Assembly (NCBI GenBank): GCA_043815505.1
Contig: JBDRIV010000004.1
Span: 7,135-71,134 of the forward strand
DNA: 64,000 bases
Direction of reading: 5' to 3'
Source of the DNA: a bacterium
GTDB taxonomy: Bacteria; Patescibacteriota; JABMPQ01; JBDRIV01
In this document: piece by piece, positions 1-61,109 of the stretch
Position numbering within the stretch: the first letter of the stretch is position 1
How the letters are laid out: each line of letters opens with the position of its first letter
Made by a program: the position numbers and the translations under genes
Notes under the pieces: generated by a model
What the model was told of the DNA's origin: nothing
Seen by the model: only the letters and a program-made list of their open reading frames with translations
The model's database searches: none

Positions 1-414
1 TACTAAGGTTTTCATATTGAATTTTTCTGCCAGCCACGACGCGGCCATTAGTGCTAAGGGATCCTTCATAACCAGTCGCGCACTTCTTTTCTTGAATAGT
101 TTTAATTTTCGGCTTTGCAACCATTCATAATATGCTCTTTTTAAATTTCTTTCTTTCCCTAACACGCCAGTCCAATCATAATACGATTCAAATTTTAACA
201 AATGATCAAGGTGATGTAAATATTTTTCTTCGTTATCGCTATCAATATATTCAAACCAGTAACGAAATTTGAAATTGCATTTTTTGCAGTGCGGACGATT
301 GAGATTAAAAGGCTCATGAAGATAACCAATATTTTCTGCTTTAGCTACAATATTTCCCACCCAAGTTGAACCGGAACGATGAGCTCCAGTTATTAGAATC
401 GGTTGCTTTGACAT
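1..414 (-). CDS. Sulfotransferase-family protein, 5' part only. The start ATG is at 414..412 and the gene runs off the window start. It is not in the ORF track because no stop lies in the window.
   Basis: Reverse translation of 414..1 gives [23 protein letters not shown]...LVMKDPLALMAASWLAEKF. It has an N-terminal P-loop of the 5'-PSB type (R-S-G-S-T-W) and a later KDP motif resembling the 3'-PB motif of PAPS-dependent sulfotransferases. The start ATG overlaps the gmd stop (TAATG). Confidence 0.5.
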   Translation of the reverse strand, partial: MSKQPILITGAHRSGSTWVGNIVAKAENIGYLHEPFNLNRPHCKKCNFKFRYWFEYIDSDNEEKYLHHLDHLLKFESYYDWTGVLGKERNLKRAYYEWLQSRKLKLFKKRSARLVMKDPLALMAASWLAEKFNMKTLV

Positions 415-1472
415 TAATATGTAATTTTATTTTTCTTAACTAGTTCCATATCGGCTTCAACCATCATTTTTACTAGATCTTTGAATTTGGTTCTTGCTTC
501 CCAACCAAGTATTTTTTTTGCTTTGGTTGGATCCCCAATCAATTCGTTAACTTCGGTTGGTCGATAATATTTCGGATCAGAAGCAATAATTGTCTGACCG
601 GTTTTTTTATTAATTCCTACCTCGTCTTTTCCTGATCTTTTCCATTCAATATCAATTATTAAGACTTTACAAGCTTCTTCAATGAATTGTCTGACAGAAT
701 AAGTTTCACCAGTTGCAATTACATAATCGTCAGCTTGTGATTGCTGTAACATCAGCCACATTGATTCCACATATTCTTTGGCATAACCCCAGTCTCTTTT
801 AGCATCCAGATTTCCAATATAAAGTTTTTCTTGTTGTCCGTTTACAATCTTAGCAAGTCCCATGGTAATCTTTCTGGTTACAAATGTTTGACCACGACGA
901 GGAGATTCATGATTAAATAAAATGCCATTGCAACCGAAAATATTATAAGCTTCACGATAATTTTTCACAATCCAATATGCATAAAGTTTGGCTACACCAT
1001 AAGGACTACGGGGATAAAAAGGTGTTGTTTCCGATTGTTTTGGCTCCTGTATTTTTCCATATAATTCGGAAGTTGATGCCTGATATAATTTTACTTTTTC
1101 AGTCATTTCCAAAAGTCTGATGGCTTCCAAAATTCTTAATGTTCCCAACGCATCAGAGTTAGCGGTATATTCCGCCGTATCAAAACTAACTTGCACGTGA
1201 CTTTGAGCACCCAAATTATAAATTTCATCAGGCTGAATTTCTTTTACTAATCTAATTAAATTAGTGGCATCAGTTAATTCGCCGTAATGTAAAAATAATC
1301 TTTCGGCTTCGTGCGGATCTTTGTACAGATGATTTATACGCCAAGTATTGAAAGTAGAACTTCTTCTAATTACCCCGTGAACCTCATACCCTTTTTCCAT
1401 TAGTAAATCTGCTAGGTATGATCCATCTTGTCCGGTTATTCCTGTTATTAATGCTATTCTTCGATTCGTCAT
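414..1472 (-). CDS. gmd: GDP-mannose 4,6-dehydratase (long, 352-aa type)
   Basis: N-terminus [25 protein letters not shown] and the SDR catalytic region ([10 protein letters not shown]) are typical of Gmd. Confidence 0.9.
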
Positions 1473-1481
1473 AAATTAATC

Positions 1482-2294
1482 TTAGTACTTATAGTCTAAT
1501 TTTCTGTTTCTTTTTTTAGCCTTAAGCAATTTATATTTCTTCATTATACCAAGTTTTAAAAATATGTAAGACAGTATATTTATTATTTTTCTTTTTATAA
1601 TAAATTTAAATAACCTGATTTTTCCTAATTGTTTTTTTATTATTCTTTTTTCTTCATCATATGCTAATTTTTTATTTGCCCCAAAACCACCGGTTGTAAA
1701 TTTAGCTACTATCTTTTTTGTATATTTACTTGGGTATTTTCCGATAAACACTTTGTAAAGTAGATCCGTATCAGCTGCCAACTTAAAACTCAAGTCAAAC
1801 ATTCCTAGCTTTTTAATAACTGAGGTTTTAATAAATACTCCCTGATGATTCATTGATTCAACTTTTCTCACAACGTCTTTTTCATAATATTTTATGTTGG
1901 TGAGATAGTTTAATTGGGATTTTTTATCTTGGATTAAAACGTTCCCAAAAATCATTGCTAAATCCTTCTCTTGTTCAAATTCCTTTACAATGTTTGATAT
2001 AACTTCTTTATCATATAATTCATCATCGGCATTTAGGAAATAAATAACTTCACCATTGGCAATCGAAATACCTTTGTTCATTCCATCATAGATTCCTTTG
2101 TCCCCTTCCGAAACAAAATAGTCTATTGAATTTTTATACTTTTCAATAATTTCTAAAGTACCATCTTTTGAACCGCCGTCAATAATAATATACTCAATAT
2201 TACTATAATTTTGTTGAAGTATGCTTTTTATAGTTTGTTCAATCGTATCTTTTGCATTAAACACGGTTGTAACAACAGAAATTTTTAAACTCAT
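1482..2294 (-). CDS. Glycosyltransferase family 2
   Basis: N-terminal GT-A signature VVTTVFNAKDTIEQTIKSILQQNYSNIEYIIIDGGSKDGT and a DDE/DxD region. Confidence 0.75.
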   Translation of the reverse strand: MSLKISVVTTVFNAKDTIEQTIKSILQQNYSNIEYIIIDGGSKDGTLEIIEKYKNSIDYFVSEGDKGIYDGMNKGISIANGEVIYFLNADDELYDKEVISNIVKEFEQEKDLAMIFGNVLIQDKKSQLNYLTNIKYYEKDVVRKVESMNHQGVFIKTSVIKKLGMFDLSFKLAADTDLLYKVFIGKYPSKYTKKIVAKFTTGGFGANKKLAYDEEKRIIKKQLGKIRLFKFIIKRKIINILSYIFLKLGIMKKYKLLKAKKRNRKLDYKY

Positions 2295-2308
2295 TATTTA
2301 TACTGAAA

Positions 2309-3175
2309 CTAATATATACGCTTTTTTATCCTTAGCCATGTATATGTAAAAAATCTTACTATAGCAGGCGGAGTTAAACAAAAGTATTTATAAAAAATAT
2401 GCCTTTTAAAATCAAACTTTAGACCATTCTTTTTTACAAAGATCAAATAGCTTTTTCGCATTGATTTATAATCTCTTCTGGTTTTATTATACTCTTTATT
2501 CTTAATACTATCAGACATTTTATCATGTATTATTTTACTATCAGTGGATATATAGGACTTATATTTACAATTCATTAGATAAATACCTTTTTGCAAATCT
2601 TCAAAACCAACAAAGTATTCTGGATCCCATTTGATAGTTGATGACAATTCTTTTCTGTATACAATACATCCAGAACATAAATCATCAACATGGAGATATT
2701 TTTCAACATTTTCATGTATTTTTGGTCTCGACATTTTTAACACCCCATTCTTAATGTTGAAATTCCTCCCACAGACCTTCCATTTCTTTTCATTACTATT
2801 AACGTCTTCAGTCAATATGCAACCCATTGCACCAACATCAGAATGCTTTGCAAACATTTTGAATATTGGCTCACACCATCCAGGCTGAAGATACATGTCA
2901 TCATCTAAAGACATTAAGAAAGGTGTTTCAATTCCTTCAACTAGTTTTGCTCGCCCGCGTGATGCTCCAATATTTTCACTTGAATATATTATTTCATAAT
3001 TATCATTTGAATTCAGTTCTTCTAGATATTCTTTAATGCTTTCATTTATATATCCATTATTAAGTATCTTAACACTGTGATTAACTGTTGTGTTTTTTTT
3101 TATGTGTTCAATAGTTTTTTTTAGTTTATCCAACCTTCTATAATGTACTATGTAAATTGTAAGCATCGTATTCAT
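2309..3175 (-). CDS. Glycosyltransferase-like protein (GT-A/GT2-like)
   Basis: A 288-aa protein with a DDD motif (MSLDDDMYLQPGW). It sits tightly packed between GT genes. Confidence 0.5.
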   Translation of the reverse strand: MNTMLTIYIVHYRRLDKLKKTIEHIKKNTTVNHSVKILNNGYINESIKEYLEELNSNDNYEIIYSSENIGASRGRAKLVEGIETPFLMSLDDDMYLQPGWCEPIFKMFAKHSDVGAMGCILTEDVNSNEKKWKVCGRNFNIKNGVLKMSRPKIHENVEKYLHVDDLCSGCIVYRKELSSTIKWDPEYFVGFEDLQKGIYLMNCKYKSYISTDSKIIHDKMSDSIKNKEYNKTRRDYKSMRKSYLIFVKKNGLKFDFKRHIFYKYFCLTPPAIVRFFTYTWLRIKKRIY

Positions 3176-3196
3176 GTTTTGGCGATAATTATCCTA

Positions 3197-4087
3197 TTAA
3201 TTACTAATTCCTACTTTTTCAAAGAATATTTCGAAGGCGCATTTTTGCTTAAGCAATCTTTCATCTTTCATGAGATCATCAATAGTAATTCTTTCCACTG
3301 TTGTTTCTTTTAGAATACTACGGAAATGATTATCATGAGTTATTGCCACCATAATCTCAAAACCATTATCTTTTAGTTTTTGTAACATTTCCTTACTTTT
3401 TTCGGGTTCTATAATATGAGTATGTAGTTCAATAAACAAATGCAGATTAGGATTGTTTTTTAGTGTTTCATTCATCCCTTTAAGTGCCTCATATTCATAA
3501 CCCTCAATGTCCATACGAATCATATCTATATTTCCTTTGTTTTTCAGAAAATTATCAACGCTTTTAGTTTGAACCATTTCTGTTTTATAATCACGTGTTT
3601 TTGGTTTACCCATAGAATGAAGATTTGAACTACTAGTTACATACAAAGGATATTCACCATCTTTGTCACTAATAGCCATGTGATTTACTTCAATATTATT
3701 AGCATTATTCAACTTAATATTTCTTTTTAGAAGATTAATATTATTTTTTTCTGGTTCCACCGCATAAACTTTTCCTGTCTCACCAATTATTTTTGATTCC
3801 ATTAAAGCATAATAACCAACATTGGCTCCCAATTCAAATATTTTAAAACCGGGTTTAATTAATTGTTTAATTACTTTTGTTGCTTCAAATTCTCTCACAC
3901 CATCCATGGCTAATTGTTTAAAAATACTTGCTTCATATACATCCAAACCTTTCTTGGCTGTGGAAATATACATTTTATAACCATTAATATTCTTCACATA
4001 TTCATTAGAGGGATGAAATAATTTTATAAGCAACCATTTTATGTTCCTATAAATTATAGCCACTACGAACTTGATTTTGCTAAACAT
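3197..4087 (-). CDS. FkbM-family SAM-dependent methyltransferase (likely sugar O-methyltransferase)
   Basis: Motif FELGANVGYYAL, which is the FkbM-family class I MT glycine-rich motif. Confidence 0.7.
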   Translation of the reverse strand: MFSKIKFVVAIIYRNIKWLLIKLFHPSNEYVKNINGYKMYISTAKKGLDVYEASIFKQLAMDGVREFEATKVIKQLIKPGFKIFELGANVGYYALMESKIIGETGKVYAVEPEKNNINLLKRNIKLNNANNIEVNHMAISDKDGEYPLYVTSSSNLHSMGKPKTRDYKTEMVQTKSVDNFLKNKGNIDMIRMDIEGYEYEALKGMNETLKNNPNLHLFIELHTHIIEPEKSKEMLQKLKDNGFEIMVAITHDNHFRSILKETTVERITIDDLMKDERLLKQKCAFEIFFEKVGISN

Positions 4088-4107
4088 TTATTATGATTAA
4101 TACTTTT

Positions 4108-5241
4108 TTAATTATTTTTTAATTCAGCGATACTTCTATATACGGTCATATATTTATTTGCCATATTTGACCAACTAAGTTCTTCTGCTTTTTTTCTACT
4201 TGCAATTTTCAATTTTTTTAAATATTTATTATCTTCGCAAATGGATTTCATGGATTTATAAACTGCATCAACAGATCTATTTGATAAAATAATACCATTA
4301 TCTTTAATTATTTCTTTTGCTCCACCAGTATTGGAAGTAATTATGGCTAAACCTGATGCCATAGCTTCCAACAAAGAATTACTCATCCCCTCATTTTTTG
4401 AAGGTAAAACCATTGCATCTGCTTGTCCAAGATATTCAGATATTTCTTCATGTTTTAACACTCCAGCAAATTCAATATTTTTACTCAATCCTTTTTCAAT
4501 AACTATTCTTTTTAGTTCTGCTTCCATATTTCCACCACCGATTAATACTAAACGAGCATTTTTATAATCACCAACTATTTTTAAAAAAGCTTCTACTAAA
4601 ATATCTATACCCTTTCTTTTAATTAGTCTGGAGGTAGAAATAAAAACTACTTCTTTTTTATTTCTATTACTACTTGTAAATTCTTTTATATCTACACCAT
4701 TGTAGATTACATCTATTGGTTGTCTTGGATTTGTTAATAAGGCTTTGTTTTTCAAATCTAGGGAATTTGCTATAACCTTTTTAGCTCTTTTCCAAATATT
4801 TTTACTCATTCTAACAAACAACAATTTATCTAACCAATAAAATCTATCATTATAAAATGGTACGTCACTTCCTCTTAGACTTACTATAAATGGCAAATTT
4901 AAATTTTTTGCAACATAACCACAAGGAATACCAAAAAAAGCATGGACTAAATCATATTTATTCAAAGCAATTAATTTCTTACAATATTTCCGAGCTCTAA
5001 GGGCATATTTTAACAATTCAGTCATTCGTTGATAATGCAAATTTCCGTTTTTGTTAACATCTAAATAATGAACTTTTATTTTGTCAGAGAAATTTTCAAC
5101 TTTACTTTCATTTACTGACGAAGTTACCAGATCAATTTCTAAATTCTTAATCTTACTAAATTCTTTTAGCAAATAATAAGTCGCATTACCAGCTCCCCCA
5201 CCCAGTGGCGGAAATTCATAATTTAAGACTAATATTTTCAT
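4108..5241 (-). CDS. Glycosyltransferase family 4 (GT-B)
   Basis: C-terminal EX7E-type motif (SKNEGMSNSLLEAMASGLAIITSNTGGAKEII). Confidence 0.8.
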   Translation of the reverse strand: MKILVLNYEFPPLGGGAGNATYYLLKEFSKIKNLEIDLVTSSVNESKVENFSDKIKVHYLDVNKNGNLHYQRMTELLKYALRARKYCKKLIALNKYDLVHAFFGIPCGYVAKNLNLPFIVSLRGSDVPFYNDRFYWLDKLLFVRMSKNIWKRAKKVIANSLDLKNKALLTNPRQPIDVIYNGVDIKEFTSSNRNKKEVVFISTSRLIKRKGIDILVEAFLKIVGDYKNARLVLIGGGNMEAELKRIVIEKGLSKNIEFAGVLKHEEISEYLGQADAMVLPSKNEGMSNSLLEAMASGLAIITSNTGGAKEIIKDNGIILSNRSVDAVYKSMKSICEDNKYLKKLKIASRKKAEELSWSNMANKYMTVYRSIAELKNN

Positions 5242-5242
5242 A

Positions 5243-6946
5243 TTAGTTGCTAGGGATAAACTCTTTATCTTCTAAATATTTAATCACTTTCTCAGTACAA
5301 GCGACTGTGTCTAATTCTGCAGTTTTTAAGTCTATATCAGGGTTTTGCGGTTCTTCAAATGGATCATTAACGCCAGTAAAATTTTGAATCTCACCTGCTC
5401 GAGCTTTGGCATAAAGTCCTCTGGTATCACGTTTCTCGCAAACCTCAATTGGCGTATTCATAAATATTTCTATAAAATTTTCAGTTTTGGCTCGCAAATC
5501 ATCACGCTGTTTTTTATAAGGTGAAATAAATGATGATATTACTCCCACACCATTGCGTGATAAAAGTTGCGCCACAAAACCAACCCGACGAATATTTTCA
5601 TCTCTATCTTCTTTGGAGAATCCTAAATCTTTGGTTAAGGATTCACGAACTATATCTCCGTCCAGTCGTTCAATTTTTATTCCTCGATCTTTTAGGACTT
5701 CATAAACTGCATCCGCTGTAGTTGTTTTGCCTGATTGAGACAGACCGGTAAACCACAACACAAAACCTTTTTGTTTGCCATTGGTTTTTTTATACATTGT
5801 ATCTACTAATGAATTATTACTATTAACTAAAAAATTAAATACTTCAGATCGTATAACATGTTCCGGTGGTTGTTCTTTTTTCTCAATCATTTCTCTTAAG
5901 GCAGTTCCTGATATGGATTCCGCCTCATCTTCTGGACATTCATTTACAAACATCAATTCTTTCTTTACTTTATTGTAAACCACACCTGCTAATTTCATTA
6001 TTTCTATACCGATTTCTTCTGGCTTGAATTTGTCAAAAACACTTTGAGCAGCGAACGGTTCATAATAATCTCCTACTCCAGCATGATCACGACCAACAAT
6101 AAAATGTGTACATCCAAAGTTTTTTCTAATTAAGGCATGAAAAACGGCTTCGCGTGGACCAGCGTAACGCATTTTTAAAGGCAGAATTCCCAGCACCACT
6201 TTGCCTTCGGGAAAATGTTGTTTAATTAAAATTTCATAACTTACCAAAATATATTCATCTTTAAAGTCCTGTATTTTTTTATCACCGATTACTGGTTGAA
6301 CAAACAAACCATCAACTTTGCTTAAAGCTTCGTGTTGTAAAAATTCGTGTGCTCGGTGCGGAACATTTCTGGTTTGAAAAGCCACAATTTTATTCCAACC
6401 AAGTTCTTCAAATTTTGCTCTGGTCTCAGCTGGCGAAAAATTGTGTTCCGGAAAAGTTTTTTTAGTATTATTCAGAAGTTCGATTTTACCACCAACAAGA
6501 TATTTATTCATTTTATATGTAGCTTCTACGCCCGGATGTTTTTTATCAATTGTCCCGTAAACATTTTGAGCAAATTCTTTTTTATTATATTCATAAATTT
6601 CCGGTTTTTGTAATAAAGCAACTGGCTTATAATCCTCATCCACCAACATTATTTTTTTCTCTCCATTAATTAGTTCTTTTTCTTTGTCATCAATATCTAA
6701 AACTATGGGAATGGACCAAACCACACCACTAGCTAGACGCATATCGGCCAACACAGACAAATAATCTTTTTTTCCTAAGAAACCTTCCAGAGGCGAATAA
6801 ACTCCACGAGCAATATTTTTTACATCTTTTACTTGTTCCTTATCAAGTTGAACTTTTTTGTAATTTTCTTGCTCACCTATTATTTTTTCAGCTTCTTCTT
6901 TGGGCAGAATTTTATTTACCAATTTTCCACCATGCGGTTGTATCAT
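5243..6946 (-). CDS. Bifunctional sulfate adenylyltransferase (ATP sulfurylase) / adenylylsulfate kinase = PAPS synthase
   Basis: The N-terminal half carries the ATP-sulfurylase motifs QTRNVPHRAHE and GRDHAGVG. The C-terminal half carries an APS-kinase P-loop (GLSQSGKTT) and DGDIVR. The start ATG overlaps the stop of the upstream cysQ-like gene (ATGA). Confidence 0.85.
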   Translation of the reverse strand: MIQPHGGKLVNKILPKEEAEKIIGEQENYKKVQLDKEQVKDVKNIARGVYSPLEGFLGKKDYLSVLADMRLASGVVWSIPIVLDIDDKEKELINGEKKIMLVDEDYKPVALLQKPEIYEYNKKEFAQNVYGTIDKKHPGVEATYKMNKYLVGGKIELLNNTKKTFPEHNFSPAETRAKFEELGWNKIVAFQTRNVPHRAHEFLQHEALSKVDGLFVQPVIGDKKIQDFKDEYILVSYEILIKQHFPEGKVVLGILPLKMRYAGPREAVFHALIRKNFGCTHFIVGRDHAGVGDYYEPFAAQSVFDKFKPEEIGIEIMKLAGVVYNKVKKELMFVNECPEDEAESISGTALREMIEKKEQPPEHVIRSEVFNFLVNSNNSLVDTMYKKTNGKQKGFVLWFTGLSQSGKTTTADAVYEVLKDRGIKIERLDGDIVRESLTKDLGFSKEDRDENIRRVGFVAQLLSRNGVGVISSFISPYKKQRDDLRAKTENFIEIFMNTPIEVCEKRDTRGLYAKARAGEIQNFTGVNDPFEEPQNPDIDLKTAELDTVACTEKVIKYLEDKEFIPSN

Positions 6947-7743
6947 TTAATTTCCTTTGTTATTTTCTTATTTAATTCTTTGTTAGCAGAACCTACTATA
7001 CCATCTAAATTATGGGGATCTTTTTTATTAAATTTCAAATCTTGACCCTGCATTCCTGTTACTACTCCTCCCGCTTCTTGTAAAACCACCACGCCACCAG
7101 CTGAATCCCATTCCCATGATTTTGGGCTTAAAGATAGGTAAATATCAGCTTTATTTTCAGCTATTTTACACATTTTCAAGCTTACACTGCCACATTTTAC
7201 ATAATTTTTCACCTGCAATTTCTTGGCCAAATCTTCTTCAGGACCGCCGGAATGATTACGACTAACGATGGCTCTCGCTTCTGCTGTTTCTGAAACTGTA
7301 GAAGTTTTTAACCCAACCTTTTGTCCATCCTTAATTTTATATGAACCTTGTCCTTTTATACCGTAATATGTTTCTCCAGTTACTGGCTGATAAACAATTC
7401 CCATAATGGGCTCCCCATTTTTTATTAAACCAACAATTATAGAAAATTCTCCTGTTTTTTGAATAAAATCCTTGGTTCCGTCCAAGGGATCAACTGTCCA
7501 AATAAATTCGGAGTCTAAACGTTTCTTATCATCAATAGATTCTTCAGCTAAAACTGGATAACCATATTTTTTTAAACCTGCAACTAAAATATCGTTTGAT
7601 TCTGTATCAGCTTTAGTTAAAGGACTGTTATCATCTTTTATTTCAATTTTATAATCCTTATTATAATAAAATCTTACTCGTTCTCCGGCAGTGTGAACTA
7701 ATCTTATAATTTCGGAAGCAACAGTTTCGGGATTATTCATCAA
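6943..7743 (-). CDS. 3'(2'),5'-bisphosphate nucleotidase (CysQ) / inositol-monophosphatase family
   Basis: IMPase-family motifs WTVDPLDGTKDF and the GG..E region. It is translationally coupled to the PAPS synthase, which fits a PAP-recycling role. Confidence 0.65.
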   Translation of the reverse strand: MMNNPETVASEIIRLVHTAGERVRFYYNKDYKIEIKDDNSPLTKADTESNDILVAGLKKYGYPVLAEESIDDKKRLDSEFIWTVDPLDGTKDFIQKTGEFSIIVGLIKNGEPIMGIVYQPVTGETYYGIKGQGSYKIKDGQKVGLKTSTVSETAEARAIVSRNHSGGPEEDLAKKLQVKNYVKCGSVSLKMCKIAENKADIYLSLSPKSWEWDSAGGVVVLQEAGGVVTGMQGQDLKFNKKDPHNLDGIVGSANKELNKKITKEIK

Positions 7744-8680
7744 CTTCTCCTTTAGCTATAACCTCCTTGATGGAATAATTAGTTTTGCCGTTGGAGTAGT
7801 AAGTTTTGATATTTATATCAGCTATAATGCCAAATATTAGAAATTGCACTCCGAGTACCACCAAGAATACCGCCAATAAGGGCAAAATGCTATCTTGTAA
7901 AGAAATATATTTCATTATTCTGGCAATAAACAAGTATAATCCTAGAATTGAACCACTTAAAGTAAAAAGAATTCCTATACCACCAAACAAATGTAAAGGA
8001 CGAGAGGCATATTTACGCCAAAACCAAACTGAAATCATGTCTAAAAATCCTTTAACCACTCGTTTCCAATTATATTTAGTAACTCCAGCCTTACGAGAAT
8101 GGTGTTCAACTTTAACTTCGCCAATTTTATAGCCATCAAGTTTTAAAACTGCCGGTATAAAACGATGCATTTCCCCAAATAAAGTTAAATGATCAAAACA
8201 TTCACTGCGATAAGTTTTCAAACTACAACCAGAATCTTGAATACCATCATTAATTAGAAATTTTCTTAAAACATTGGCACCACGCGATAAGAAATTTTTC
8301 ATAAAGGAATCTTTTCTATTATGTCGCCAACCTGATACAATATCAAACCCCTCATCCATCTTGGCTAGCAATTTGGGAATTTCTTCTGGCGGATTCTGCA
8401 AATCTCCATCCATAGTAATGTAAATTTCTCCCTGTGCTGCTTTAAAACCGGCATCAAGAGCTGCCGTTTGACCAAAGTTTTTTCTCATCACCACAATTTT
8501 CACCGGCATAAGCTTTGATAATCTTTTAACGCTATCATCTGTGGAACCGTCGTCAACAAAAATAACCTCATAAGATTCTGCCAATTTATCCATAGTTTGG
8601 AGAATCCGAGCATGAAGTTCTTCCACGTTTTCGGCCTCATTAAAGACCGGCACTATTACCGAATACTTGTATTTTGCCAT
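7733..8680 (-). CDS. Polyprenyl-phosphate sugar synthase (GtrB/ArnC/DPM1-like GT2 with C-terminal TM helices)
   Basis: KYSVIVPVFNEAENV...EVIFVDDGSTDDS...ITMDGDLQNPPE. It has two C-terminal hydrophobic helices, as in GtrB/DPM synthases. Confidence 0.75.
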   Translation of the reverse strand: MAKYKYSVIVPVFNEAENVEELHARILQTMDKLAESYEVIFVDDGSTDDSVKRLSKLMPVKIVVMRKNFGQTAALDAGFKAAQGEIYITMDGDLQNPPEEIPKLLAKMDEGFDIVSGWRHNRKDSFMKNFLSRGANVLRKFLINDGIQDSGCSLKTYRSECFDHLTLFGEMHRFIPAVLKLDGYKIGEVKVEHHSRKAGVTKYNWKRVVKGFLDMISVWFWRKYASRPLHLFGGIGILFTLSGSILGLYLFIARIMKYISLQDSILPLLAVFLVVLGVQFLIFGIIADINIKTYYSNGKTNYSIKEVIAKGEVDE

Positions 8681-8852
8681 AAATTAGGTGCCTTTTTTAG
8701 CAAAATTTAAAATCACTATATAGCACAACTTATCATATTTTTTTGTTCTTGGCAATTCTTTTTTCTTTTCGATAATAAGCTTATAATTTGGCTTATTTAA
8801 GGGTTTTATTGCTGTTTATAATAACTTGCTTAAGTGTGTTATAATAACCTAT

Positions 8853-10826
8853 ATGGAAGTTGAAGAAAATCAAAATTTAATAGAAGAATTTTTTGAGCCA
8901 ACTATTCGCAATACTGGCATTGTTATTGCTATTTATTTGGCTCTCTTGACAACCTTGGCTATGTTTGGTCTATTCTCTAAAACAGTTGTGATAGTACTTT
9001 TATTTCCAGTAATATTTTTATTTTTATTTTGGCTTTATAAATATCTGCGAAAATTAGAAACTCCTTGGCGCATCCAAAAATTTGATTTTATTGCTCTGCT
9101 TTTAATTCTATTTATTGCTATTGCCCTTGGCGCCTTTCATCATCATTTACCAATGGGTCGCGACGATATGGCCTATATGGCTAGTGCTGTCAACATTTCT
9201 GATAATGGCAGTTTAGAATTTGAAGATGTTTACAGCTATCCTTTTTCCCCTTGGCAAGAAATTTCTGACAATACTTTTACTTCCCAGTTTGTTCCTGTTT
9301 ATGCTGTTGGTTTAGCTTCTTTTTATGTTTTATTTGGACTGACGGGAATTTATTGGTTTAATGCAGTATTAATATTTTTAACCTTATTATTTCTATTTCG
9401 TTTAATAGTTTTACTTACAAAAAGTAGACATTCTGGCATTACATTAATATTACTTTTCAGTTCCCTTTTTACAACGATTTGGTTTGTTCGACGAACAAAT
9501 TCAGAAATTCTATTTATGTTTTTGTTTTGGTTGGGAATTTATTTATTTGTACTGGGGTTCAAGAATTCTAAAATTAATCAAACTTTGTTGGGATTTATAC
9601 CCATCACTCTTCTTCCCCTAGTTCGTTTTGAAGGTGTCTTTTTTATAGTTTCTTATTTATTAGTTTTTATATATTTACTACTTTTCTCAAATTTACGCCA
9701 TAGTAAAACTCGAGCTACAAAATATATTTATTTACCGCTGATTCTTAATTTGGGAATTTTTGTTTGGTATGTTGTTTTGTATAGTTCTGGCTATATTTCT
9801 CGTATTCTAAATGAATATTTTGGTACATTGACTTCATATTTGCTAAACAATTGGATCTTTCTAATTATTTTATTGCTTCTGGTTGTGGGTATAATAATCT
9901 ATCGTGTATTTTATTTCACCAAAAAGGAAATCTCTAAAATAAGTTTTTCCCGATTATTTTTTACTTTATTAATATTAATTGGAATTGCTTGGGGAATTTA
10001 TGAATATTTTCTGTTGCAGTATGCTGATACTGTCAGCTGGGGACAAATAAAGAGTTATTATATAGCCTATAGCTTTTTCACTTATGGTTTTGTCTGGTAC
10101 ATAATTATAGCCCTATTTGGTTGGTATAAAAAATATTTTAAGAAATCTGTTTGGTTAATTGTTCTTATTTCTTTGCCCAGTTTTATGTTCCTAATTGAAC
10201 CTGGTATTGCCATTGATCATCCTTGGTATATGAGAAGGTTTATTGCTGTATTAATTCCCCTACTTATAATACTTGCTACTATCACTTTGGCTAAATTAAG
10301 GCTACCTTTAAAACAACTTTTAAGTTTAACTCTTATTTTACTGGCTTTAAATATAACTATTAGTTTACCAATTTTAATTTATCGCGATCATTTAGGAGTT
10401 GATCAGGAATTGTCAGATTTTGCTGAGCATTTTAAAGACAATGATTTACTAATCATGCAACCCGGTTGGGACTGGCAACAATGGGCTTATGGGCTTCATT
10501 ATCTACATGATTTGGATGTTGTGCCTAGAGAAGATAATTTAGCTAAAGATAAATTGAACGAAATAATTAACAGTCACGAACATATTTATTTAATTAGCAC
10601 CAGCGAAGATTATCGTCACCCTCTTTTTCCCGGCCCCTATGCAGAACCTGATTTTAAATGGCTACTTCATTATCCAGAAATGCAAAAAGCTGCTGATATG
10701 AATTTGTATATTGATGACAAAGGAGCCAATATGAAAACATCAGCCATTAAAGCTTATTTAGACGAATTACCACCACGAGTTATTATGGAAAAACAAACTC
10801 TTTGGTATATAACAAAGGTTAAGTAA
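8853..10826 (+). CDS. Polytopic membrane protein, GT-C-fold glycosyltransferase-like (ArnT/PMT/YfhO-like)
   Basis: It has more than 12 predicted TM helices. A conserved-looking RDD acidic motif lies in the first extracytoplasmic loop (HLPMGRDDMAYMAS). The gene is divergent from the GtrB-like gene. The likely start is the ATG at 8853; the ORF track extends it to a TTG at 8826. Confidence 0.45.
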   Translation: MEVEENQNLIEEFFEPTIRNTGIVIAIYLALLTTLAMFGLFSKTVVIVLLFPVIFLFLFWLYKYLRKLETPWRIQKFDFIALLLILFIAIALGAFHHHLPMGRDDMAYMASAVNISDNGSLEFEDVYSYPFSPWQEISDNTFTSQFVPVYAVGLASFYVLFGLTGIYWFNAVLIFLTLLFLFRLIVLLTKSRHSGITLILLFSSLFTTIWFVRRTNSEILFMFLFWLGIYLFVLGFKNSKINQTLLGFIPITLLPLVRFEGVFFIVSYLLVFIYLLLFSNLRHSKTRATKYIYLPLILNLGIFVWYVVLYSSGYISRILNEYFGTLTSYLLNNWIFLIILLLLVVGIIIYRVFYFTKKEISKISFSRLFFTLLILIGIAWGIYEYFLLQYADTVSWGQIKSYYIAYSFFTYGFVWYIIIALFGWYKKYFKKSVWLIVLISLPSFMFLIEPGIAIDHPWYMRRFIAVLIPLLIILATITLAKLRLPLKQLLSLTLILLALNITISLPILIYRDHLGVDQELSDFAEHFKDNDLLIMQPGWDWQQWAYGLHYLHDLDVVPREDNLAKDKLNEIINSHEHIYLISTSEDYRHPLFPGPYAEPDFKWLLHYPEMQKAADMNLYIDDKGANMKTSAIKAYLDELPPRVIMEKQTLWYITKVK

Positions 10827-12346
10827 TGGACAAACTTACCATAAAAATTATCAAGATATTAATTATAGTTTCTCCGCTTATTCTCTTTGGATATCTGCTA
10901 GACAAACGCTTTGTTCCGAGTGGCAAAATAAGTTTTGTTTACGATTTCAAAAATGATTCTGGTTTTATTTCTAAGCTTTATCCTGATGATAGAATAGCTG
11001 AAATTGAAAACACGGACGATTTTTATTCACAAGCACTAAAAAAAGATTTAGCTTATTTTGATACTTTTATATTTCGTCCTTTCAACGAAATTAAAATGAC
11101 AGTTGATTTTAAACCTGGTCAGCAAAATGTCGTTGAACTTGGTCCCGATATTTCTGACAATAAATGGACTTATGATTTTCAACCGTTAACTAATCAAATT
11201 CTAAATAATTTAACTTGGGAACAGGTAGCTGAAAATGGAACAATTTTATGGCAAAAAGAAAAGAATTATGATTCTTTAGAACAATTATTTGGCAATTTAC
11301 CTGGGGAAAATAAGAATGTGGCCTATTATAATTATGATGATTTTATCAGCGACCGTCGTTTAGCCGATTACTCTCCCACTGACGAAACATATGTAATAAA
11401 TGAAGCCTTGCGTGGTAGTCATACAATTTATACTTACATTAAAGATGAAAATTTGGATATTAAAGTGCAAAAATCTGATTTAAACAGGTATAATGGCCAA
11501 GACGAATTAAATATCAGATTATTCTCAGGCGCCAGAGAAATTTTTGCTAAAACAATAGATGATGATGGTATTAATGATAACTCTGATGTCCCAGGAAAAA
11601 TTCAAGCCACGCAAGTTAAAATTTCTAAAGAATCTTTGCCGGAAGGAATTTATCGTATTGAACTTGATACCTCCGATGATGTTTTAATTAGAAGAATTGA
11701 AACTAAACAAAATAAATTAGTATTTGCCAATAAAATATTTTTAGCAGAAAATGTTAATTACTTGCCAACCGAATCTGTTAAAGACGAGCCCACTATTGTA
11801 TATGCTTCTATTTATCCCGAGCTAGGAAAAACCGAGGTGGAAACCCCCCGAGCAGAAAGCCTCCAGACCATTACTTTTGATAATAAATCAATTAAATTAA
11901 CAGAACCTAATACTAAATATGATATTAGTCAACTAGTTGATGCTACGGGTATTACTAAAATTTCTGTCCCGGATCGTGATATAAAGATTGAGAGCAAAGG
12001 TTTCTTTGCTTTTTCCGATCAGCAATATTTTTATCCCCTGCCACCAAATTATTCCAGGCTAAGTGATACAACTAATTTAGATAAAACTGATTACATAATT
12101 GCTAATTATGTAAAACCAACTAAGCTGGCAGATGACAGGTGGCAAAATTCAATTACTTTTAATTATGATGATGTTTATATTGATCAGAATAATACTTTAC
12201 AGTTTGCTCTTTCAGCCCCTAATTTAGAAAACAATAATAACAGTGTTGCCATATCCCAAATTAAATTGGAATTGATAAAAGATCCGCTTCATTGGAACGA
12301 TTTCTTGCCCCGTCTCAAAAACTATATCACTAATTTGTATCAATAA
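10826..12346 (+). CDS. N-terminally membrane-anchored extracytoplasmic protein, unknown function
   Basis: A 506-aa ORF translationally coupled (ATGA/TAATG) to both the upstream GT-C gene and the downstream gene. It has a single N-terminal TM helix and is Asp/Asn-rich. Confidence 0.5.
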   Translation: MDKLTIKIIKILIIVSPLILFGYLLDKRFVPSGKISFVYDFKNDSGFISKLYPDDRIAEIENTDDFYSQALKKDLAYFDTFIFRPFNEIKMTVDFKPGQQNVVELGPDISDNKWTYDFQPLTNQILNNLTWEQVAENGTILWQKEKNYDSLEQLFGNLPGENKNVAYYNYDDFISDRRLADYSPTDETYVINEALRGSHTIYTYIKDENLDIKVQKSDLNRYNGQDELNIRLFSGAREIFAKTIDDDGINDNSDVPGKIQATQVKISKESLPEGIYRIELDTSDDVLIRRIETKQNKLVFANKIFLAENVNYLPTESVKDEPTIVYASIYPELGKTEVETPRAESLQTITFDNKSIKLTEPNTKYDISQLVDATGITKISVPDRDIKIESKGFFAFSDQQYFYPLPPNYSRLSDTTNLDKTDYIIANYVKPTKLADDRWQNSITFNYDDVYIDQNNTLQFALSAPNLENNNNSVAISQIKLELIKDPLHWNDFLPRLKNYITNLYQ

Positions 12347-12717
12347 TGTCTCTGCGCAATTTATTAAATCGCGATAATATAAATGAAATAAACACCACGT
12401 TTTTTTCCACGGTTATAATAACTTATATTATAATTTTATTAATAGATATTGTTACCTCAGGTTTTGTGGCGCGTTTGTTTAACATAAACATCTTTTTGTT
12501 TCTATGCGCAGTTTCTGCTTTTATTATGATGGTATTCCCACCCAAAAAATCTTATTTTGCAGATAAATTTTCAAAAAATTTCCTCCTAATAGTTTCTCTA
12601 TTAGCAGGAGCTCTGGTTTATGCCAAGACCTTTGATACTGGCTGGGAAGGAATTATATTTTCCTTGGCCGTTTTGTTTATTACTTACCAATCACTAAAAC
12701 TTTTTTATCAGCCTTAA
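12346..12717 (+). CDS. Small 4-TM membrane protein (GtrA-like flippase-associated protein?)
   Basis: A 123-aa protein with 3-4 hydrophobic helices. Its size and position next to the GtrB-like/GT-C genes resemble GtrA. No diagnostic motif was seen. Confidence 0.35.
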   Translation: MSLRNLLNRDNINEINTTFFSTVIITYIIILLIDIVTSGFVARLFNINIFLFLCAVSAFIMMVFPPKKSYFADKFSKNFLLIVSLLAGALVYAKTFDTGWEGIIFSLAVLFITYQSLKLFYQP

Positions 12718-13664
12718 GATCTGTTGGTTTTATACCAGTCAACAAATATTTTAATTCCGTCAGTAAATGAGGTTGACGGTTTAAAGCCAAGTAACTGCTC
12801 GGCTTTTTTTGTATCAGCATAAGTAATAGCCACATCTTCTTTTGGTTTGGGTGATTCTTCAATAATTGCCTTTTTACCTATTGCCTCTTCTATATTGGCA
12901 ATAAATGAGTTCAAATCTATTGGCTTTGAATTTCCTAGATTTATAATTTCGTAAGGAAAGGATTTTTTGGCAGCTGCTATTACACCATTTACAATATCAT
13001 CAATATAAGTCCAGTCCCGTTTCATGGAACCATCACCAAATTTTTTAATGGGTTGGTTTTTTATTATTGCTTCTGTGAATAAATATGGCGCCATATCAGG
13101 GCGACCTTTTGGTCCATAAACGGAAAAAAAGCGCAAACAGGTCGTATTTAAGCCAAATAAATAGTGATAGGTATAGCACATCAACTCCCCTGCTTTTTTT
13201 GTGGCAGCATAGGGAGAGGCGGGACTATTAACATCATCACTTTCTGCAAAAGGAACTTTTTTATTATTACCATAAACTGACGATGAGGAAGCAAAAATAA
13301 AATCCTTCGGTCCATATTTTTTGGCAGCTTCTAAGAGATTTAATGTTCCCATAACATTTACTTGGTTGTAAAGTGTGGGATCGGCAATTGAATTTCGCAC
13401 TCCGGCTCGGGCAGCTAGATGAATTATTTTATCAAATTTGTTTTCGCTAAATACTTCTTCTACAAATTCTCTATTAGTAAAATCTCCTTCTAACAAATGA
13501 AACTTTACGAATTTTTCAAGTTCAGCAGTATTTTGTCTTTTGTATTCTGGATTATAATAATCGTTAAAACAATCTAAACCAAAAACTTCTTCTCCGTTTT
13601 CAAGAAGTTTTTTAGCAACTGAAGAACCAATGAAACCGGCGGCGCCGGTGATTAAATATTTCAT
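12714..13664 (-). CDS. NAD-dependent nucleotide-sugar epimerase (UDP-glucuronate 4-epimerase-like)
   Basis: ITGAAGFIGSSVAKKLL followed by YYNPEYKRQN, a pattern seen in Cap1J/LpsL/GlaKP-type epimerases. The SDR motif YAATKKAGE is present. It lies adjacent to ugd. Confidence 0.7.
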   Translation of the reverse strand: MKYLITGAAGFIGSSVAKKLLENGEEVFGLDCFNDYYNPEYKRQNTAELEKFVKFHLLEGDFTNREFVEEVFSENKFDKIIHLAARAGVRNSIADPTLYNQVNVMGTLNLLEAAKKYGPKDFIFASSSSVYGNNKKVPFAESDDVNSPASPYAATKKAGELMCYTYHYLFGLNTTCLRFFSVYGPKGRPDMAPYLFTEAIIKNQPIKKFGDGSMKRDWTYIDDIVNGVIAAAKKSFPYEIINLGNSKPIDLNSFIANIEEAIGKKAIIEESPKPKEDVAITYADTKKAEQLLGFKPSTSFTDGIKIFVDWYKTNRS

Positions 13665-13665
13665 T

Positions 13666-14739
13666 TTAATTTAAATATTGACTCGGTATTAATTTCTTAT
13701 CTATCATCTTTTCCAATTCCTTGTTATAAACTCTCGATTTTTCTTTAATAAGGTTTCTTATTAACTTAGGTAATTTATACTGTAAAAATCGATATTTACT
13801 ACAAATTCTACTATAATACCTAATAATTTTGAGAATATACTTATCAAATTTGGAATATATGGTTTTAGAATGGTTTTTCAATAACTTAATATTATTTATA
13901 AATTTATCAACATCTTTATTATCATATAACGATCTTGACTTTCTAGCCTGCAATAAAAGATTGTTCATTATCTTACTATCATAACCATAATTTGAACGAA
14001 ATGCTATTTTATGCTTTGCCATTATTATCACAATAAACATTGTTATAAGATCGTATGAAATATTTGTTCTAGGAATATTAATATCGGAGCTGTTGTCAAA
14101 TTTGATACCTGCTATTTTTAATATTTCACTTCCGATATTTGTAATATTACTTTTATAATTTTCGTAAAACAAAATACTAAGCTTGTCTTTATAATGAAAT
14201 GAAAATTCTTTTATTAAATCTACATAATTCCAATCGTTAATATCTATTTGCATGCATCTCTTCCATTTCTCATTATAAGCAAATTTAATATTGGAAAATG
14301 GAAGAAAAACATCTTTTGGATTTAGAAAATAATTTTGATAAACATGCTGTTGATACAAACTTCTTAAAATACTTTCTTGATGCCTTAAAACTATGATTAT
14401 TCTCGCATTTGGAAATATTGCTTTAATAAACTTTAGTCTTTTTTTGTAGTCAAACCTTAACATCCTTAGAGATAGTGTTTCTAATGATATTAATATATTC
14501 TTCTGCTTAATCTTTTTTTCTTGATTTTCTATAACATTCTTTAGTAATTCTATGTCATCTTCTTTAAACATATCAAAATCCACAAGTTTTATTGCTTGTT
14601 TGAGTGAATTAAGTATTACCAGAGGGTTATAGATTGTAGAATTATTATTGAGTCTTGAGAAAAAATGTTTTTGAATTGCTGTAGTGCCGGTTTTTGGTAA
14701 TCCAATATGAAGTATATAATTCTTCATGTTTTGATTCAT
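13666..14739 (-). CDS. Sulfotransferase-like P-loop protein
   Basis: N-terminal HIGLPKTGTTAIQ (5'-PSB-like PKxGTT) and a later IIIVLRHQESILRSLY region (3'-PB-like). The rest of the protein is divergent. Confidence 0.45.
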   Translation of the reverse strand: MNQNMKNYILHIGLPKTGTTAIQKHFFSRLNNNSTIYNPLVILNSLKQAIKLVDFDMFKEDDIELLKNVIENQEKKIKQKNILISLETLSLRMLRFDYKKRLKFIKAIFPNARIIIVLRHQESILRSLYQQHVYQNYFLNPKDVFLPFSNIKFAYNEKWKRCMQIDINDWNYVDLIKEFSFHYKDKLSILFYENYKSNITNIGSEILKIAGIKFDNSSDINIPRTNISYDLITMFIVIIMAKHKIAFRSNYGYDSKIMNNLLLQARKSRSLYDNKDVDKFINNIKLLKNHSKTIYSKFDKYILKIIRYYSRICSKYRFLQYKLPKLIRNLIKEKSRVYNKELEKMIDKKLIPSQYLN

Positions 14740-14788
14740 AATATTTCTTGTGTTGCCAATATTTTAGATTCTACTTTAGACGCCCATC

Positions 14789-16078
14789 TTATTTCCCAAT
14801 ACCAAAATATTTATAGCCCATATTTATCATTTTTTCTTTATCTAAAAGATTGCGACCATCAAAAATGTAAGGTTTTTTAAGCATAGATTTTATTTTATTC
14901 CAATCCAGATCTTTAAATTCTGGCCATTCGGTAGCAATAATTACAGCGTCTGCATCTTTAACGGCTTCATAAGCATCGTTGGTATATTCAACCTCATGTC
15001 CGTTTAAGGCGCTGGCCGCCGTTTCTTCGGCAATTGGATCATAAGCAGCCACTTTGGCACCAGCTTCTTTTAAAAGCTTTATAATTTCTAAACTGGCAGA
15101 TTCACGAATATCATCTGTATTGGCTTTAAAAGCTAAACCCAGTGCACCAAATTTTAATCCTTTAATTTCTTTAAACTCATCCTTAATTTTTTCAAATAAT
15201 ACTCTTCTTTGGTTATTATTGACAGTAATTACAGCCTTTAAAAGGTTAAATTCATAACCACGAGTTCCAGCAATTTGGTAAAGAGCATTAACATCTTTTG
15301 GAAAACAAGAGCCACCATAGCCAATTCCCGCGTGCAAAAAATGCCGTCCGATTCTATCATCCCTACCCATCCCGTGAGCGACCATGTCAACATCAGCTCC
15401 AACCTTTTCACAAATGTTAGCAATTTCATTTATGAAAGATATTTTGGTTGCCAAAAAAGCATTGGAGGCATATTTAATCATTTCTGAGCTAGCAATATTT
15501 GTTGTTATGATATCAGCGTCAATGGGATCAAATAGTTTTTTTATTTTGTCTTTGGCTTTTTTACTCTCTGCTCCAATTACAATTCTGTTAGGTTCAAAGA
15601 AATCCTGTACCGCTGAACCTTCACGTAAAAATTCCGGACAAGAAACTACATCAAATTCTCCCTTATAATGTTTTTTAATTATTTTCTTTATTTCCTGACC
15701 TGTTCCTACTGGTACAGTACTTTTAGTAGCAATTATTTTGTAGCCTTTCAGGTTTTTACCAATATCTTCTGCTACTTGATAAACATATTTCAGATTGGCA
15801 GTTCCATCTGGGTTAGACGGCGTTCCTACAGCAATGAATACAATTTCTGATTCAGCCAATTCATCTTTTAAGGATGTTGAAAAAGAGAGGGTTCCTTTTT
15901 TTGCTTCTTCAACTATTAATTCTGTTAATCCTGGTTCATAAATAGGAACTTTTCCCTTTTTTAATTTCTCAATTTTTTCTTTATCAATGTCGACACAAAC
16001 CACTTGATTGCCAAATGATGCTAAACAAGGACCTAATACTAATCCTACATAACCTGTTCCGACAACTGTTACTTTCAT
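14789..16078 (-). CDS. ugd: UDP-glucose 6-dehydrogenase
   Basis: MKVTVVGTGYVGLV Rossmann motif and the catalytic Cys region (GGSCFPKD). Confidence 0.85.
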   Translation of the reverse strand: MKVTVVGTGYVGLVLGPCLASFGNQVVCVDIDKEKIEKLKKGKVPIYEPGLTELIVEEAKKGTLSFSTSLKDELAESEIVFIAVGTPSNPDGTANLKYVYQVAEDIGKNLKGYKIIATKSTVPVGTGQEIKKIIKKHYKGEFDVVSCPEFLREGSAVQDFFEPNRIVIGAESKKAKDKIKKLFDPIDADIITTNIASSEMIKYASNAFLATKISFINEIANICEKVGADVDMVAHGMGRDDRIGRHFLHAGIGYGGSCFPKDVNALYQIAGTRGYEFNLLKAVITVNNNQRRVLFEKIKDEFKEIKGLKFGALGLAFKANTDDIRESASLEIIKLLKEAGAKVAAYDPIAEETAASALNGHEVEYTNDAYEAVKDADAVIIATEWPEFKDLDWNKIKSMLKKPYIFDGRNLLDKEKMINMGYKYFGIGK

Positions 16079-16084: not shown

Positions 16085-17245
16085 TTACTTTAAGTATGTT
16101 TTTAGTTTGGCTGCTTTGTTGGTTTTTTCCCAAGTGAAATCTTTATCGTTGCGTCCGAAATGTCCATAAGCAGCAGTTTTTTTGTAGATTGGTCTCTTGA
16201 GTCTTAGAGTTTTGATGATGTCAGCTGGTTTCAGGGAAAATTCACGTTTTACAATTTTTTCGATTTGCTGATCAGGAAGCTGGCCCGTTCCAAAGGTTTG
16301 CACTAAAACTGAAACCGGTTCGGCGCGTCCAATTACATAAGCTATTTGCACCTCACATTTTTCTGCCAATTTGGCTGCCACAATGTTTTTAGCAATGTAG
16401 CGTCCCATATAAGATGCACTTCTATCAACTTTGGATGGATCTTTTCCAGAAAAACATCCCCCACCGTGAGAACCGTGCCCACCATAAGTATCAACAATTA
16501 TTTTTCTGCCGGTAAGGCCCGCATCAGCTGGTGGCCCACCTTTAACAAATTTTCCGGTAGCATTTATGAAATATTTAGTTTTACTGTCCAAATATTTACC
16601 TGCTACAGGTTTAATTACTTTGTTTATAATATCTTTTTCCAGTTTGACTGGTGAAACCTCAGGATTGTGTTGAGCTGCACAAACAACGGTATCAACTCTT
16701 TTGGGCTTACCATCTACGTATTCAACAGCAATTTCTATTTTTCCATCTGGTCTGAGGTAAGGAAGAGTTTTATTTTTTCTAACATCAGCTAGCTTTTTAG
16801 CCATTTTGTGAGAAAGCAAAATTGGCAAAGGCATTAATTCTGGAGTTTCGTTACAAGCATAACCAAACATTAAACCTTGATCTCCTGCTCCTTGTTCTTT
16901 AAATTTTCCCTTTCCTTTATCAACGCCTTGAGCAATATCACCCGACTGTTCATCAACTGCTACAATTACACCACAATCATCACCAGAAAAACCAATACTT
17001 CCATTATTGTAGCCTATTTCCTTTATAGTATCGCGGGCAATCTTGGCTATATCGACATAACCTTTAGTTCTAATTTCTCCTGCTACTACCACTAAACCGG
17101 TAGTAACCAAGCATTCTACACCGGCTCTACTCTCAGGATCCTGAGATAGTAGCGAGTCTAGAATACTATCTGAAATTTGGTCGGCAACTTTGTCGGGATG
17201 CCCTTCAGTCACAGATTCTGAAGTAAATATGTATTTGTTGGCCAT
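16085..17245 (-). CDS. metK: S-adenosylmethionine synthetase
   Basis: [28 protein letters not shown]-like GGGCFSGKD, and DTYGG. Confidence 0.92.
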
Positions 17246-17260: not shown

Positions 17261-18229
<969 letters not shown>

Positions 18230-18238
18230 TTAGATAAA

Positions 18239-19159
18239 TTATATCTTCCTTCGAAAATATTGTAAAGTTTCTTTTAATGTTTCCATTATATCAATTTGCG
18301 CTTGCCATGATGTTTCCTTATAGATTTTTTTAGGACTACCAACCAGGCACATAATATCACTTGTTCGCATCATGGCTGGATCATTTTCTATACTTATTTT
18401 CACCTTAGATAAACTAAGAAGTCGATTTAGTAAATCTTTAATAGTATAACCTTCTCCTCGGGCAATATTATAGACCTCGCCAGCTTTCCCGTTTAATAAA
18501 ATATCTCGATACGCCCGAACCACATCTCTAACATCTAGCATTTCTTTTTTTGGTTCTAAATTACCAACTTTAATAACTGGTTTTAATATTCCGGCTTCAA
18601 TTTGAGCAATTTGATTTGAAAATGATGGCACCACAAATTCCGTTGTCTGTCCTGGACCAGTATGATTAAATGGTCGAGCAATTTTTATTTTCAAATTACT
18701 TTTAAGGTATTCATTCGCGAGATTTTCCATAGCTAATTTACTTTCAGCATATATTCCCATTGCCTTTGTAGGACTTTTCTCTGTCAGAATAACTTCGGAG
18801 CTTCCGTAAACATAGGCTGAACTGACAAGTAATACATCTGTCTTTTTTTCTGATTGGGAAAGTGCTTGAAGTAAATTTTTAGTTCCACCGACGTTTACAT
18901 CGTATACTAACTTTTTGTTTTCTATTTGAGGATTGGCTACAGCAACTAAATGAATAACCAAATCAGGTTCAATTTCTTTAATTAGTTCAGCAAGCTTTAT
19001 ACTATTAGTTATGTCACACGACTGATGGTGATAACTTTTTTCGTTACTTTTATTTTTATCAATACCATATATTTTGTAATTTTTATCTCTCAGCAAAAAA
19101 GAGGTTAAATACCTCCCAACAAAACCTTGACTACCTGTAATTAAAATTCTTTTATGCAC
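18239..19159 (-). CDS. GDP-4-keto-6-deoxy-D-mannose reductase / GDP-6-deoxyhexose synthase (Rmd/Fcl-like SDR)
   Basis: ILITGSQGFVGRYL Rossmann motif and the YAESK catalytic motif. It lies immediately downstream of the short gmd. Confidence 0.6.
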   Translation of the reverse strand: MHKRILITGSQGFVGRYLTSFLLRDKNYKIYGIDKNKSNEKSYHHQSCDITNSIKLAELIKEIEPDLVIHLVAVANPQIENKKLVYDVNVGGTKNLLQALSQSEKKTDVLLVSSAYVYGSSEVILTEKSPTKAMGIYAESKLAMENLANEYLKSNLKIKIARPFNHTGPGQTTEFVVPSFSNQIAQIEAGILKPVIKVGNLEPKKEMLDVRDVVRAYRDILLNGKAGEVYNIARGEGYTIKDLLNRLLSLSKVKISIENDPAMMRTSDIMCLVGSPKKIYKETSWQAQIDIMETLKETLQYFRRKI

Positions 19160-20087: not shown

Positions 20088-20088
20088 A

Positions 20089-21474: not shown

Positions 21475-21484
21475 GATCTCCTAA

Positions 21485-23025: not shown

Positions 23026-23040
23026 TTTATTATTTTTTAA

Positions 23041-61100: not shown

Positions 61101-61109
61101 TATAGATAA

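Follow-up and report, generated by a model that had tools for sequence, protein, structure and literature searches.

A PAPS-supply and sulfotransferase module within a predicted surface-glycan operon of a Patescibacteria bacterium

The 64-kb stretch of contig JBDRIV010000004.1 analysed here, called the window throughout, begins with a compact gene set for sulfate activation and sulfate transfer that lies inside a predicted glycan operon. Nine consecutive open reading frames (ORFs) are packed on the minus strand in positions 1–8680. In transcription order the spacings between them are −8, −4, +1, +20, +21, +14, +9 and −1 nt. Gene assignments are based on Pfam and NCBIfam profile matches to the translations of these ORFs (Table 1). 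The set comprises a fused ATP sulfurylase/adenosine 5′-phosphosulfate (APS) kinase, that is, a predicted synthase of 3′-phosphoadenosine 5′-phosphosulfate (PAPS), together with a CysQ-like phosphatase for 3′-phosphoadenosine 5′-phosphate (PAP), a PAPS-type sulfotransferase (ST1) and genes for glycan synthesis. The PAPS-supply genes overlap glycan genes by 4–8 nt, and the start of ST1 overlaps the stop codon of the GDP-mannose 4,6-dehydratase gene by 1 nt. The nine genes are probably co-transcribed as one operon. Scans for promoter and terminator consensus sequences did not rise above shuffled expectation and speak neither for nor against a single transcript. The polyprenyl-phosphate glycosyltransferase that heads the operon scores 185 bits with the NCBIfam model ArnC and 145 bits with PgfS, each under its cutoff, and its product carries two C-terminal transmembrane helices. 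A preliminary description of this DNA had already placed a sulfation module among glycan genes in a tightly packed minus-strand operon. Both the packing and all of its operon gene assignments are borne out by the ORF calls and by the Pfam and NCBIfam matches. The NCBI (PGAP) annotation likewise gives each module gene its correct name, and the product of 6943..7740 is named CysQ there. At 90% identity, none of the module proteins looked up clusters with another protein in a collection of 15 billion.

Table 1. Features of the window discussed in the text, with positions in window coordinates. GT, glycosyltransferase; SAM, S-adenosylmethionine; SDR, short-chain dehydrogenase/reductase; TM, transmembrane.
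Feature	Positions	Strand	Remarks
ST1, PAPS-type sulfotransferase	1..414	-	First 138 of 312 codons in the window; last operon gene seen; frame runs off the edge
GDP-mannose 4,6-dehydratase (Gmd)	414..1472	-	Pfam 508 bits; TIGR01472 575.5 bits (equivalog cutoff 415, passed)
GT2 glycosyltransferase	1482..2294	-	Glycos_transf_2 101.7 bits
GT2 glycosyltransferase	2309..3175	-	57.1 bits
FkbM-family SAM methyltransferase	3197..4087	-	Pfam FkbM 85 bits; TIGR01444 106 bits (cutoff 37.7)
GT4 glycosyltransferase	4108..5241	-	Pfam
Fused ATP sulfurylase/APS kinase (PAPS synthase, Sat-CysC)	5243..6946	-	PUA_2, ATP-sulfurylase and APS_kinase, 182/264/203 bits (Pfam)
CysQ-like 3′(2′),5′-bisphosphate nucleotidase (PAP phosphatase)	6943..7740	-	Pfam Inositol_P 183 bits
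Polyprenyl-phosphate glycosyltransferase, GtrB/ArnC-like GT2	7733..8680	-	First gene of the operon; Pfam GT2 113 bits
Divergent intergenic region, 145 nt	8681..8825	.	Promoter region probably shared by the two transcription units
666-aa polytopic membrane protein, weakly PMT_2/GT-C-like	8826..10826	+	Candidate user of the polyprenyl-phosphate sugar made by the GtrB-like enzyme
506-aa protein with N-terminal membrane anchor	10826..12346	+	No family match; grouped in one transcription unit with the GT-C-like gene
123-aa protein with 4 TM segments	12346..12717	+	Possibly GtrA-like, by size and topology only
SDR nucleotide-sugar epimerase/dehydratase	12714..13664	-	Pfam
ST2, second PAPS-type sulfotransferase	13666..14739	-	Fold closest to heparan-sulfate N- and 3-O-sulfotransferases
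UDP-glucose/GDP-mannose dehydrogenase (Ugd)	14789..16078	-	Domain match
SAM synthetase (MetK)	16085..17245	-	Inside the glycan cluster
Second Gmd, two SDR reductase/epimerases, secreted unknown protein, RmlA, RmlD, RmlB	17261..24036	-	
Wzy_C-type polymerase/ligase-like membrane protein	34347..35798	-	Pfam Wzy_C
CpsC/Wzz-like chain-length-determinant candidate	36953..37831	-	Weak match; upstream end of the super-cluster

The predicted PAPS synthase, Sat-CysC, holds both activities in one chain. It passes the NCBIfam models TIGR00339 (407.6 bits, cutoff 323) and TIGR00455 (228.5 bits, cutoff 138.7), and it scores 522 with the whole-protein equivalog NF004040, under the cutoff of 669. The sulfurylase motifs QTRNVPHRAH and GRDHAG and the APS-kinase motifs GLSQSGKTT, LDGD, SFISPY and NFTG can each be read directly in the translation, in agreement with the earlier statement that both catalytic motif sets are intact. 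The closest structure in the PDB is the bifunctional SAT/APS kinase from Aquifex aeolicus (PDB entry 2gks; residues 29–564, E 2.6e-116). The two proteins share the order of ATP sulfurylase followed by APS kinase and both sets of catalytic motifs, whereas the window protein is encoded in a glycan operon and its function is a prediction. A scan of genome contigs for Sat-CysC, run with lysine-rich query words, returned only metagenome-assembled genomes (MAGs) of Chloroflexota, mostly Anaerolineales, at 37–41% identity, a result of little weight for taxonomy or distribution. The CysQ-like protein carries the motifs DPLDGT and WEWDSAGG, and its best PDB match is CysQ (3b8b, E 4.5e-39), whereas the best inositol monophosphatase reaches 5.6e-22.

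Sat-CysC- and CysQ-type enzymes form the first steps of the cysteine pathway in many bacteria. The two genes could thus serve housekeeping assimilatory sulfate reduction and lie in the operon by chance, and a few per cent of MAGs of the Candidate Phyla Radiation (CPR) do have cysH or aprA (PMC11608272). We regard this explanation as very unlikely. Among the Pfam-scanned ORFs of the window there is no domain of a PAPS reductase, a sulfite reductase or a sulfate transporter, the supply genes overlap glycan genes as described above, and two PAPS-type sulfotransferases are present. In addition, cysH or aprA occurs in only 4.95% of the CPR MAGs in the same study (PMC11608272), and PAPS synthase was detected in CPR MAGs that lack any sulfur-reduction genes (PMC12114108). 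This organism probably has no sulfate reduction directed towards cysteine.

ST1 is cut by the edge of the window. Its 138-aa fragment scores 23.4, under the Pfam threshold of 27. An exhaustive HMMER search recovered the full-length protein (P0148; MFH1509270.1, 312 aa) from the 255,102-bp NCBI contig that contains the window, with 100% identity over residues 1–138 and the NCBI name 'sulfotransferase'. At full length it reaches 51.1 bits with the Pfam model Sulfotransfer_3 (cutoff 27) and 39 bits with Sulfotransfer_1 (cutoff 22). The gene that had earlier been seen only as an edge fragment is now complete, and its 312-aa product passes both models. The 5′-phosphosulfate-binding (5′-PSB) motif is GAHRSGSTW and the 3′-phosphate-binding (3′-PB) motif is RHPAAFVSS. 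In an alignment with 40 relatives, residues R13, S14, G15, T17, W18, K117-D118-P119 and R141...S149 are invariant or nearly so. The structure predicted by AlphaFold2 has a mean confidence score (pLDDT) of 94. Among the Foldseek matches listed for this model against the PDB, 50 of 50 are PAPS sulfotransferases, with E values down to 1e-6 and a TM-score of about 0.5. They include the sulfotransferase domain of CurM, the tyrosylprotein sulfotransferases TPST1/2, Stf1 and cytosolic sulfotransferases (SULTs). The family profile of ST1 aligns to TPST1 over the 5′-PSB, KDP and 3′-PB regions. A word-indexed search with the 138-aa fragment returned only three frameshifted fragments. The closest of these word-indexed homologues are split into short ORFs (L033, 385–1120; L034, 1194–1625), which looks like frameshift errors or decay.

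ST2 lies between ugd and an epimerase gene, 49 nt from ugd. It scores 33.7 with Sulfotransfer_1 (cutoff 22) and 30.2 with Sulfotransfer_3 (cutoff 27), and passing both cutoffs it confirms the second sulfotransferase-like gene that the preliminary description had noticed beside ugd. The motif PKTGTT and residues R119 and S127 are invariant, and the predicted structure has a pLDDT of 89. Its nearest relatives share 44–47% identity; the two named proteins among them are cyanobacterial and one contig comes from a TARA ocean sample. Neither sulfotransferase matches the Stf0-type family. Neither ST1 nor ST2 contains a hydrophobic segment, and both are therefore predicted to be cytoplasmic, where PAPS is made. 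Kinase or NTPase identity was considered for the two proteins and is ruled out by the ranking of folds and by the motifs; profile, fold and motif evidence alike say sulfotransferase, as had been proposed for both of these P-loop proteins. ST1 and ST2 thus probably transfer sulfate from PAPS.

A metagenome scan for relatives of ST1 returned 80 loci, in which the relatives share 35–46% identity with ST1. The GC content of these loci ranges from 0.27 to 0.74, and the family is therefore widespread across bacteria. Gene context was counted on those loci that reach 8 kb or more, 32 in all. A GT2 gene similar to 1482–2294 is found within 10 kb of the ST1 homologue in 18 of the 32 loci, an SDR epimerase in nine and a GT4 in six. 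One locus (L042, SDBT01057783.1, GC 0.36) repeats the core of the module: in 1386–5201 it encodes CysQ (42% identity), then a Sat/CysC fusion (61%) and then an ST1-like protein (44%), with gene order and orientation matching the window and an epimerase gene ahead of them. This locus may represent a related lineage or a mobile module. A second locus (L116, 1–10924, GC 0.32) holds cysC-cysD-cysN, a GT4, a Wzx flippase and two sulfotransferases, and so is a polysaccharide cluster with its own PAPS supply; it differs from the window in having CysDN in place of Sat. A third (L035, 1–20906) holds a CysQ-like gene, three sulfotransferases, each of a different Pfam family, GT4s, Wzx, Bac_transf and Wza/Poly_export. 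The presence of Poly_export marks it as diderm and not CPR-like, in contrast to the window.

The operon is not isolated. By its gene content, the region from position 1 to about 37,800 is a large predicted surface-polysaccharide cluster, and the operon forms its distal part. Besides the genes in Table 1, this super-cluster holds GT4s, a methyltransferase, a radical-SAM/SPASM enzyme and a DegT aminotransferase. The divergent plus-strand trio at 8826–12717, which faces the GtrB-like gene, could be a Gtr-type unit for extracytoplasmic glycosylation. The gene metK (16085–17245) is located between ugd and the second gmd. Near it are three users of SAM, namely FkbM (3197–4087), a Methyltransf_23 protein (30179–31078) and the radical-SAM/SPASM enzyme (31035–32036), so that SAM is a second cofactor whose supply gene lies close to its users. 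A gene for a HIT-domain protein (24036–24452) directly follows rmlB, the two overlapping by one base; nucleotide-linked compounds are the substrates of HIT enzymes. In a 1017-aa protein (25738–28791), FG-GAP repeats occur together with weak GH53/GH39-like matches; the protein may be secreted and take part in glycan processing or adhesion. Beyond the super-cluster, two paralogous HtrA-type serine proteases (Trypsin_2 plus PDZ) flank a polytopic DUF5656 membrane protein with about 8–10 hydrophobic segments at 37915–41336. Genes for a trehalase, a GT20 protein (OtsA-like, trehalose-6-phosphate synthase) and two GT4s occupy 60060–63979, just upstream of rpsL, an unusual set for a reduced genome. 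They lie about 55 kb from the sulfotransferase genes; a link to trehalose sulfation of the mycobacterial type was considered and none is shown.

The window also holds the str/S10/spc ribosomal operon, which serves to place the host. After the 100% self-match, the best matches of SecY share 62–67% identity and the top 120 share 60–67%, and all that carry a source name belong to Patescibacteria, Parcubacteria, Moranbacteria or an unclassified bacterium. Furthermore, the S5 gene abuts the L15 gene, with no uL30 gene between them (45217–46331). Absence of uL30 is a trait reported for the CPR (PMC9297842). On account of the SecY relatives and the missing uL30 gene, the host is placed by its sequence in the Patescibacteria (CPR), near Parcubacteria/Moranbacteria, and the earlier label 'CPR-like' is supported. 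The ORFs of S10, L23, L22 and L15 extend about 60–110 aa beyond their Pfam domains, which may be due to start codons called too far upstream or to genuine extensions. Scans with Rfam and for tRNA genes found nothing in the window.

A further explanation would be an artefact, either a chimeric assembly that joined the module of another organism to this genome or a set of decaying and inactive genes. Two observations point in that direction. The GC content is lower in 1–16 kb than elsewhere in the window (0.29–0.33 vs 0.34–0.41), and ST1, ST2 and the PAPS synthase all stay below 50% identity to their nearest homologues except at the L042 locus, the homologues with a named source being non-CPR. 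However, the module and the CPR-type ribosomal operon share one contiguous sequence, which ties the module physically to a CPR genome and excludes a binning artefact. Neither the strand bias nor the negative GC skew is interrupted anywhere in the window, all the ORFs are intact with conserved catalytic motifs, and lower GC is common in glycan clusters. We thus consider such an artefact extremely improbable. Horizontal exchange or rapid evolution of a glycan region would also fit the low GC of positions 1–16000.

Based on how the operon is built, on the identities of its enzymes, on the glycan genes around ST1 homologues and on the rarity of sulfate-reduction genes in the CPR literature, we propose that the PAPS module supplies ST1 and ST2 for sulfation of a surface glycan, with a probability of roughly 0.6. 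Sat-CysC would make PAPS locally from sulfate and two ATP, and CysQ would remove the inhibitory by-product PAP. In the cytoplasm, ST1 and ST2 would use this PAPS to O-sulfate sugars of a lipid-linked oligosaccharide that would contain deoxyhexose and uronic acid and, with the FkbM O-methyltransferase encoded in the operon, would also be methylated. The product would then be flipped, polymerised by the Wzy-like and CpsC-like proteins and displayed on the cell surface. The preliminary description had assigned PAPS the same role as sulfuryl donor for a glycan. The position of the supply genes in a glycan operon and the glycosyltransferase-rich loci of the ST1 relatives support that assignment, while we infer the glycan as the acceptor.

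Several observations weigh against a glycan acceptor or against a complete pathway. The nearest sequence and fold matches of ST1 are the sulfotransferases of tyrosylprotein and of the curacin polyketide synthase (CurM) and not those of the carbohydrate type. One relative of ST2 adjoins another sulfotransferase and a GT4, but the others have no glycan genes nearby. The CysQ-like protein reaches 204.9 bits with its best NCBIfam model, TIGR01331, just under the cutoff of 228.8. Finally, none of the proteins encoded in the window is recognised as a sulfate transporter, as a Wzx flippase or as an initiating phosphoglycosyl transferase.

The first two of these points also bear on another view, in which ST1 and ST2 act on a surface or secreted protein (at tyrosine, as RaxST does on RaxX), a lipid or a small metabolite. 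The PAPS module would then lie among glycan genes only because genes for envelope modification cluster. The best PDB profile matches of the ST1 family are indeed tyrosylprotein sulfotransferases (E 5e-6), and its best Foldseek matches are the sulfotransferase domains of CurM and of olefin synthase and TPST; ST2 homologues are often found outside glycan loci. On the other hand, ST1 ends a glycosyltransferase-rich operon in direct overlap with Gmd, and homologues of ST1 are present inside polysaccharide clusters of the Wzx/Wza type. The fold of ST2 is nearest to glycosaminoglycan sulfotransferases and its gene is wedged between ugd and an epimerase. In addition, neither a RaxX-like peptide nor a polyketide synthase gene is seen in the window. 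We therefore judge a non-glycan acceptor unlikely and prefer sulfation of a surface glycan.

A bolder form of this proposal is that the episymbiont keeps sulfate activation only for its surface and builds a sulfated, O-methylated polyanion rich in deoxyhexose and uronic acid and resembling a glycosaminoglycan; it would be the first envelope glycan with sulfate in the CPR. We advance it tentatively, at somewhat less than even odds. Attachment to other cells is how CPR bacteria live, and to our knowledge almost nothing is known of their surface chemistry. If the proposal is true, a sulfated envelope polyanion might mediate the contact with the host cell. A self-supplied sulfation module gives a concrete, testable prediction for the CPR surface, namely a polyanionic sulfated glycan. 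A role in sulfation would also explain the survival of a sulfate-activation enzyme in lineages that do not reduce sulfate.

Within the literature that pairs CPR with sulfotransferases or sulfation, no paper was found to propose sulfated glycans in CPR, and one study does not discuss PAPS in CPR (PMC10811913). Nevertheless, the novelty claimed in the preliminary description was overstated. The metagenome loci L035, L042 and L116 are similar, PAPS synthase in CPR MAGs was already known (PMC12114108) and the names in the NCBI annotation are correct. New here are the host lineage and the gathering of all components in one compact operon. The cluster design itself is already known in other bacteria and involves no new mechanism.

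Sulfated bacterial exopolysaccharides with sulfotransferase-bearing clusters have been described for cyanobacterial synechan (xss, PMC8205485) and for Pontiella (PMC7356697). These clusters resemble the one in the window in that glycosyltransferases, components of Wzy-type polymerisation and cytoplasmic PAPS-dependent sulfotransferases occur together and the expected end product is an extracellular polysaccharide with sulfate groups. A further likeness to the synechan system is that the named closest homologues of ST2 are cyanobacterial. The window differs in its reduced-genome CPR host, in having the PAPS synthase and CysQ inside the operon and in a product that is predicted from genes, and its sulfotransferases are less than 50% identical to any relative found. 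A second comparison is with rhizobial nodPQ-nodH and Xanthomonas raxPQ-raxST, where a dedicated ATP sulfurylase/APS kinase stands beside a PAPS-using sulfotransferase, apart from cysteine synthesis. There the sulfurylase is of the CysD/CysN type, whereas the window has the homo-oligomeric Sat type fused to CysC, as in Aquifex, and includes CysQ. The acceptors differ as well, being the Nod factor and the RaxX peptide in those systems and presumably a polysaccharide here.

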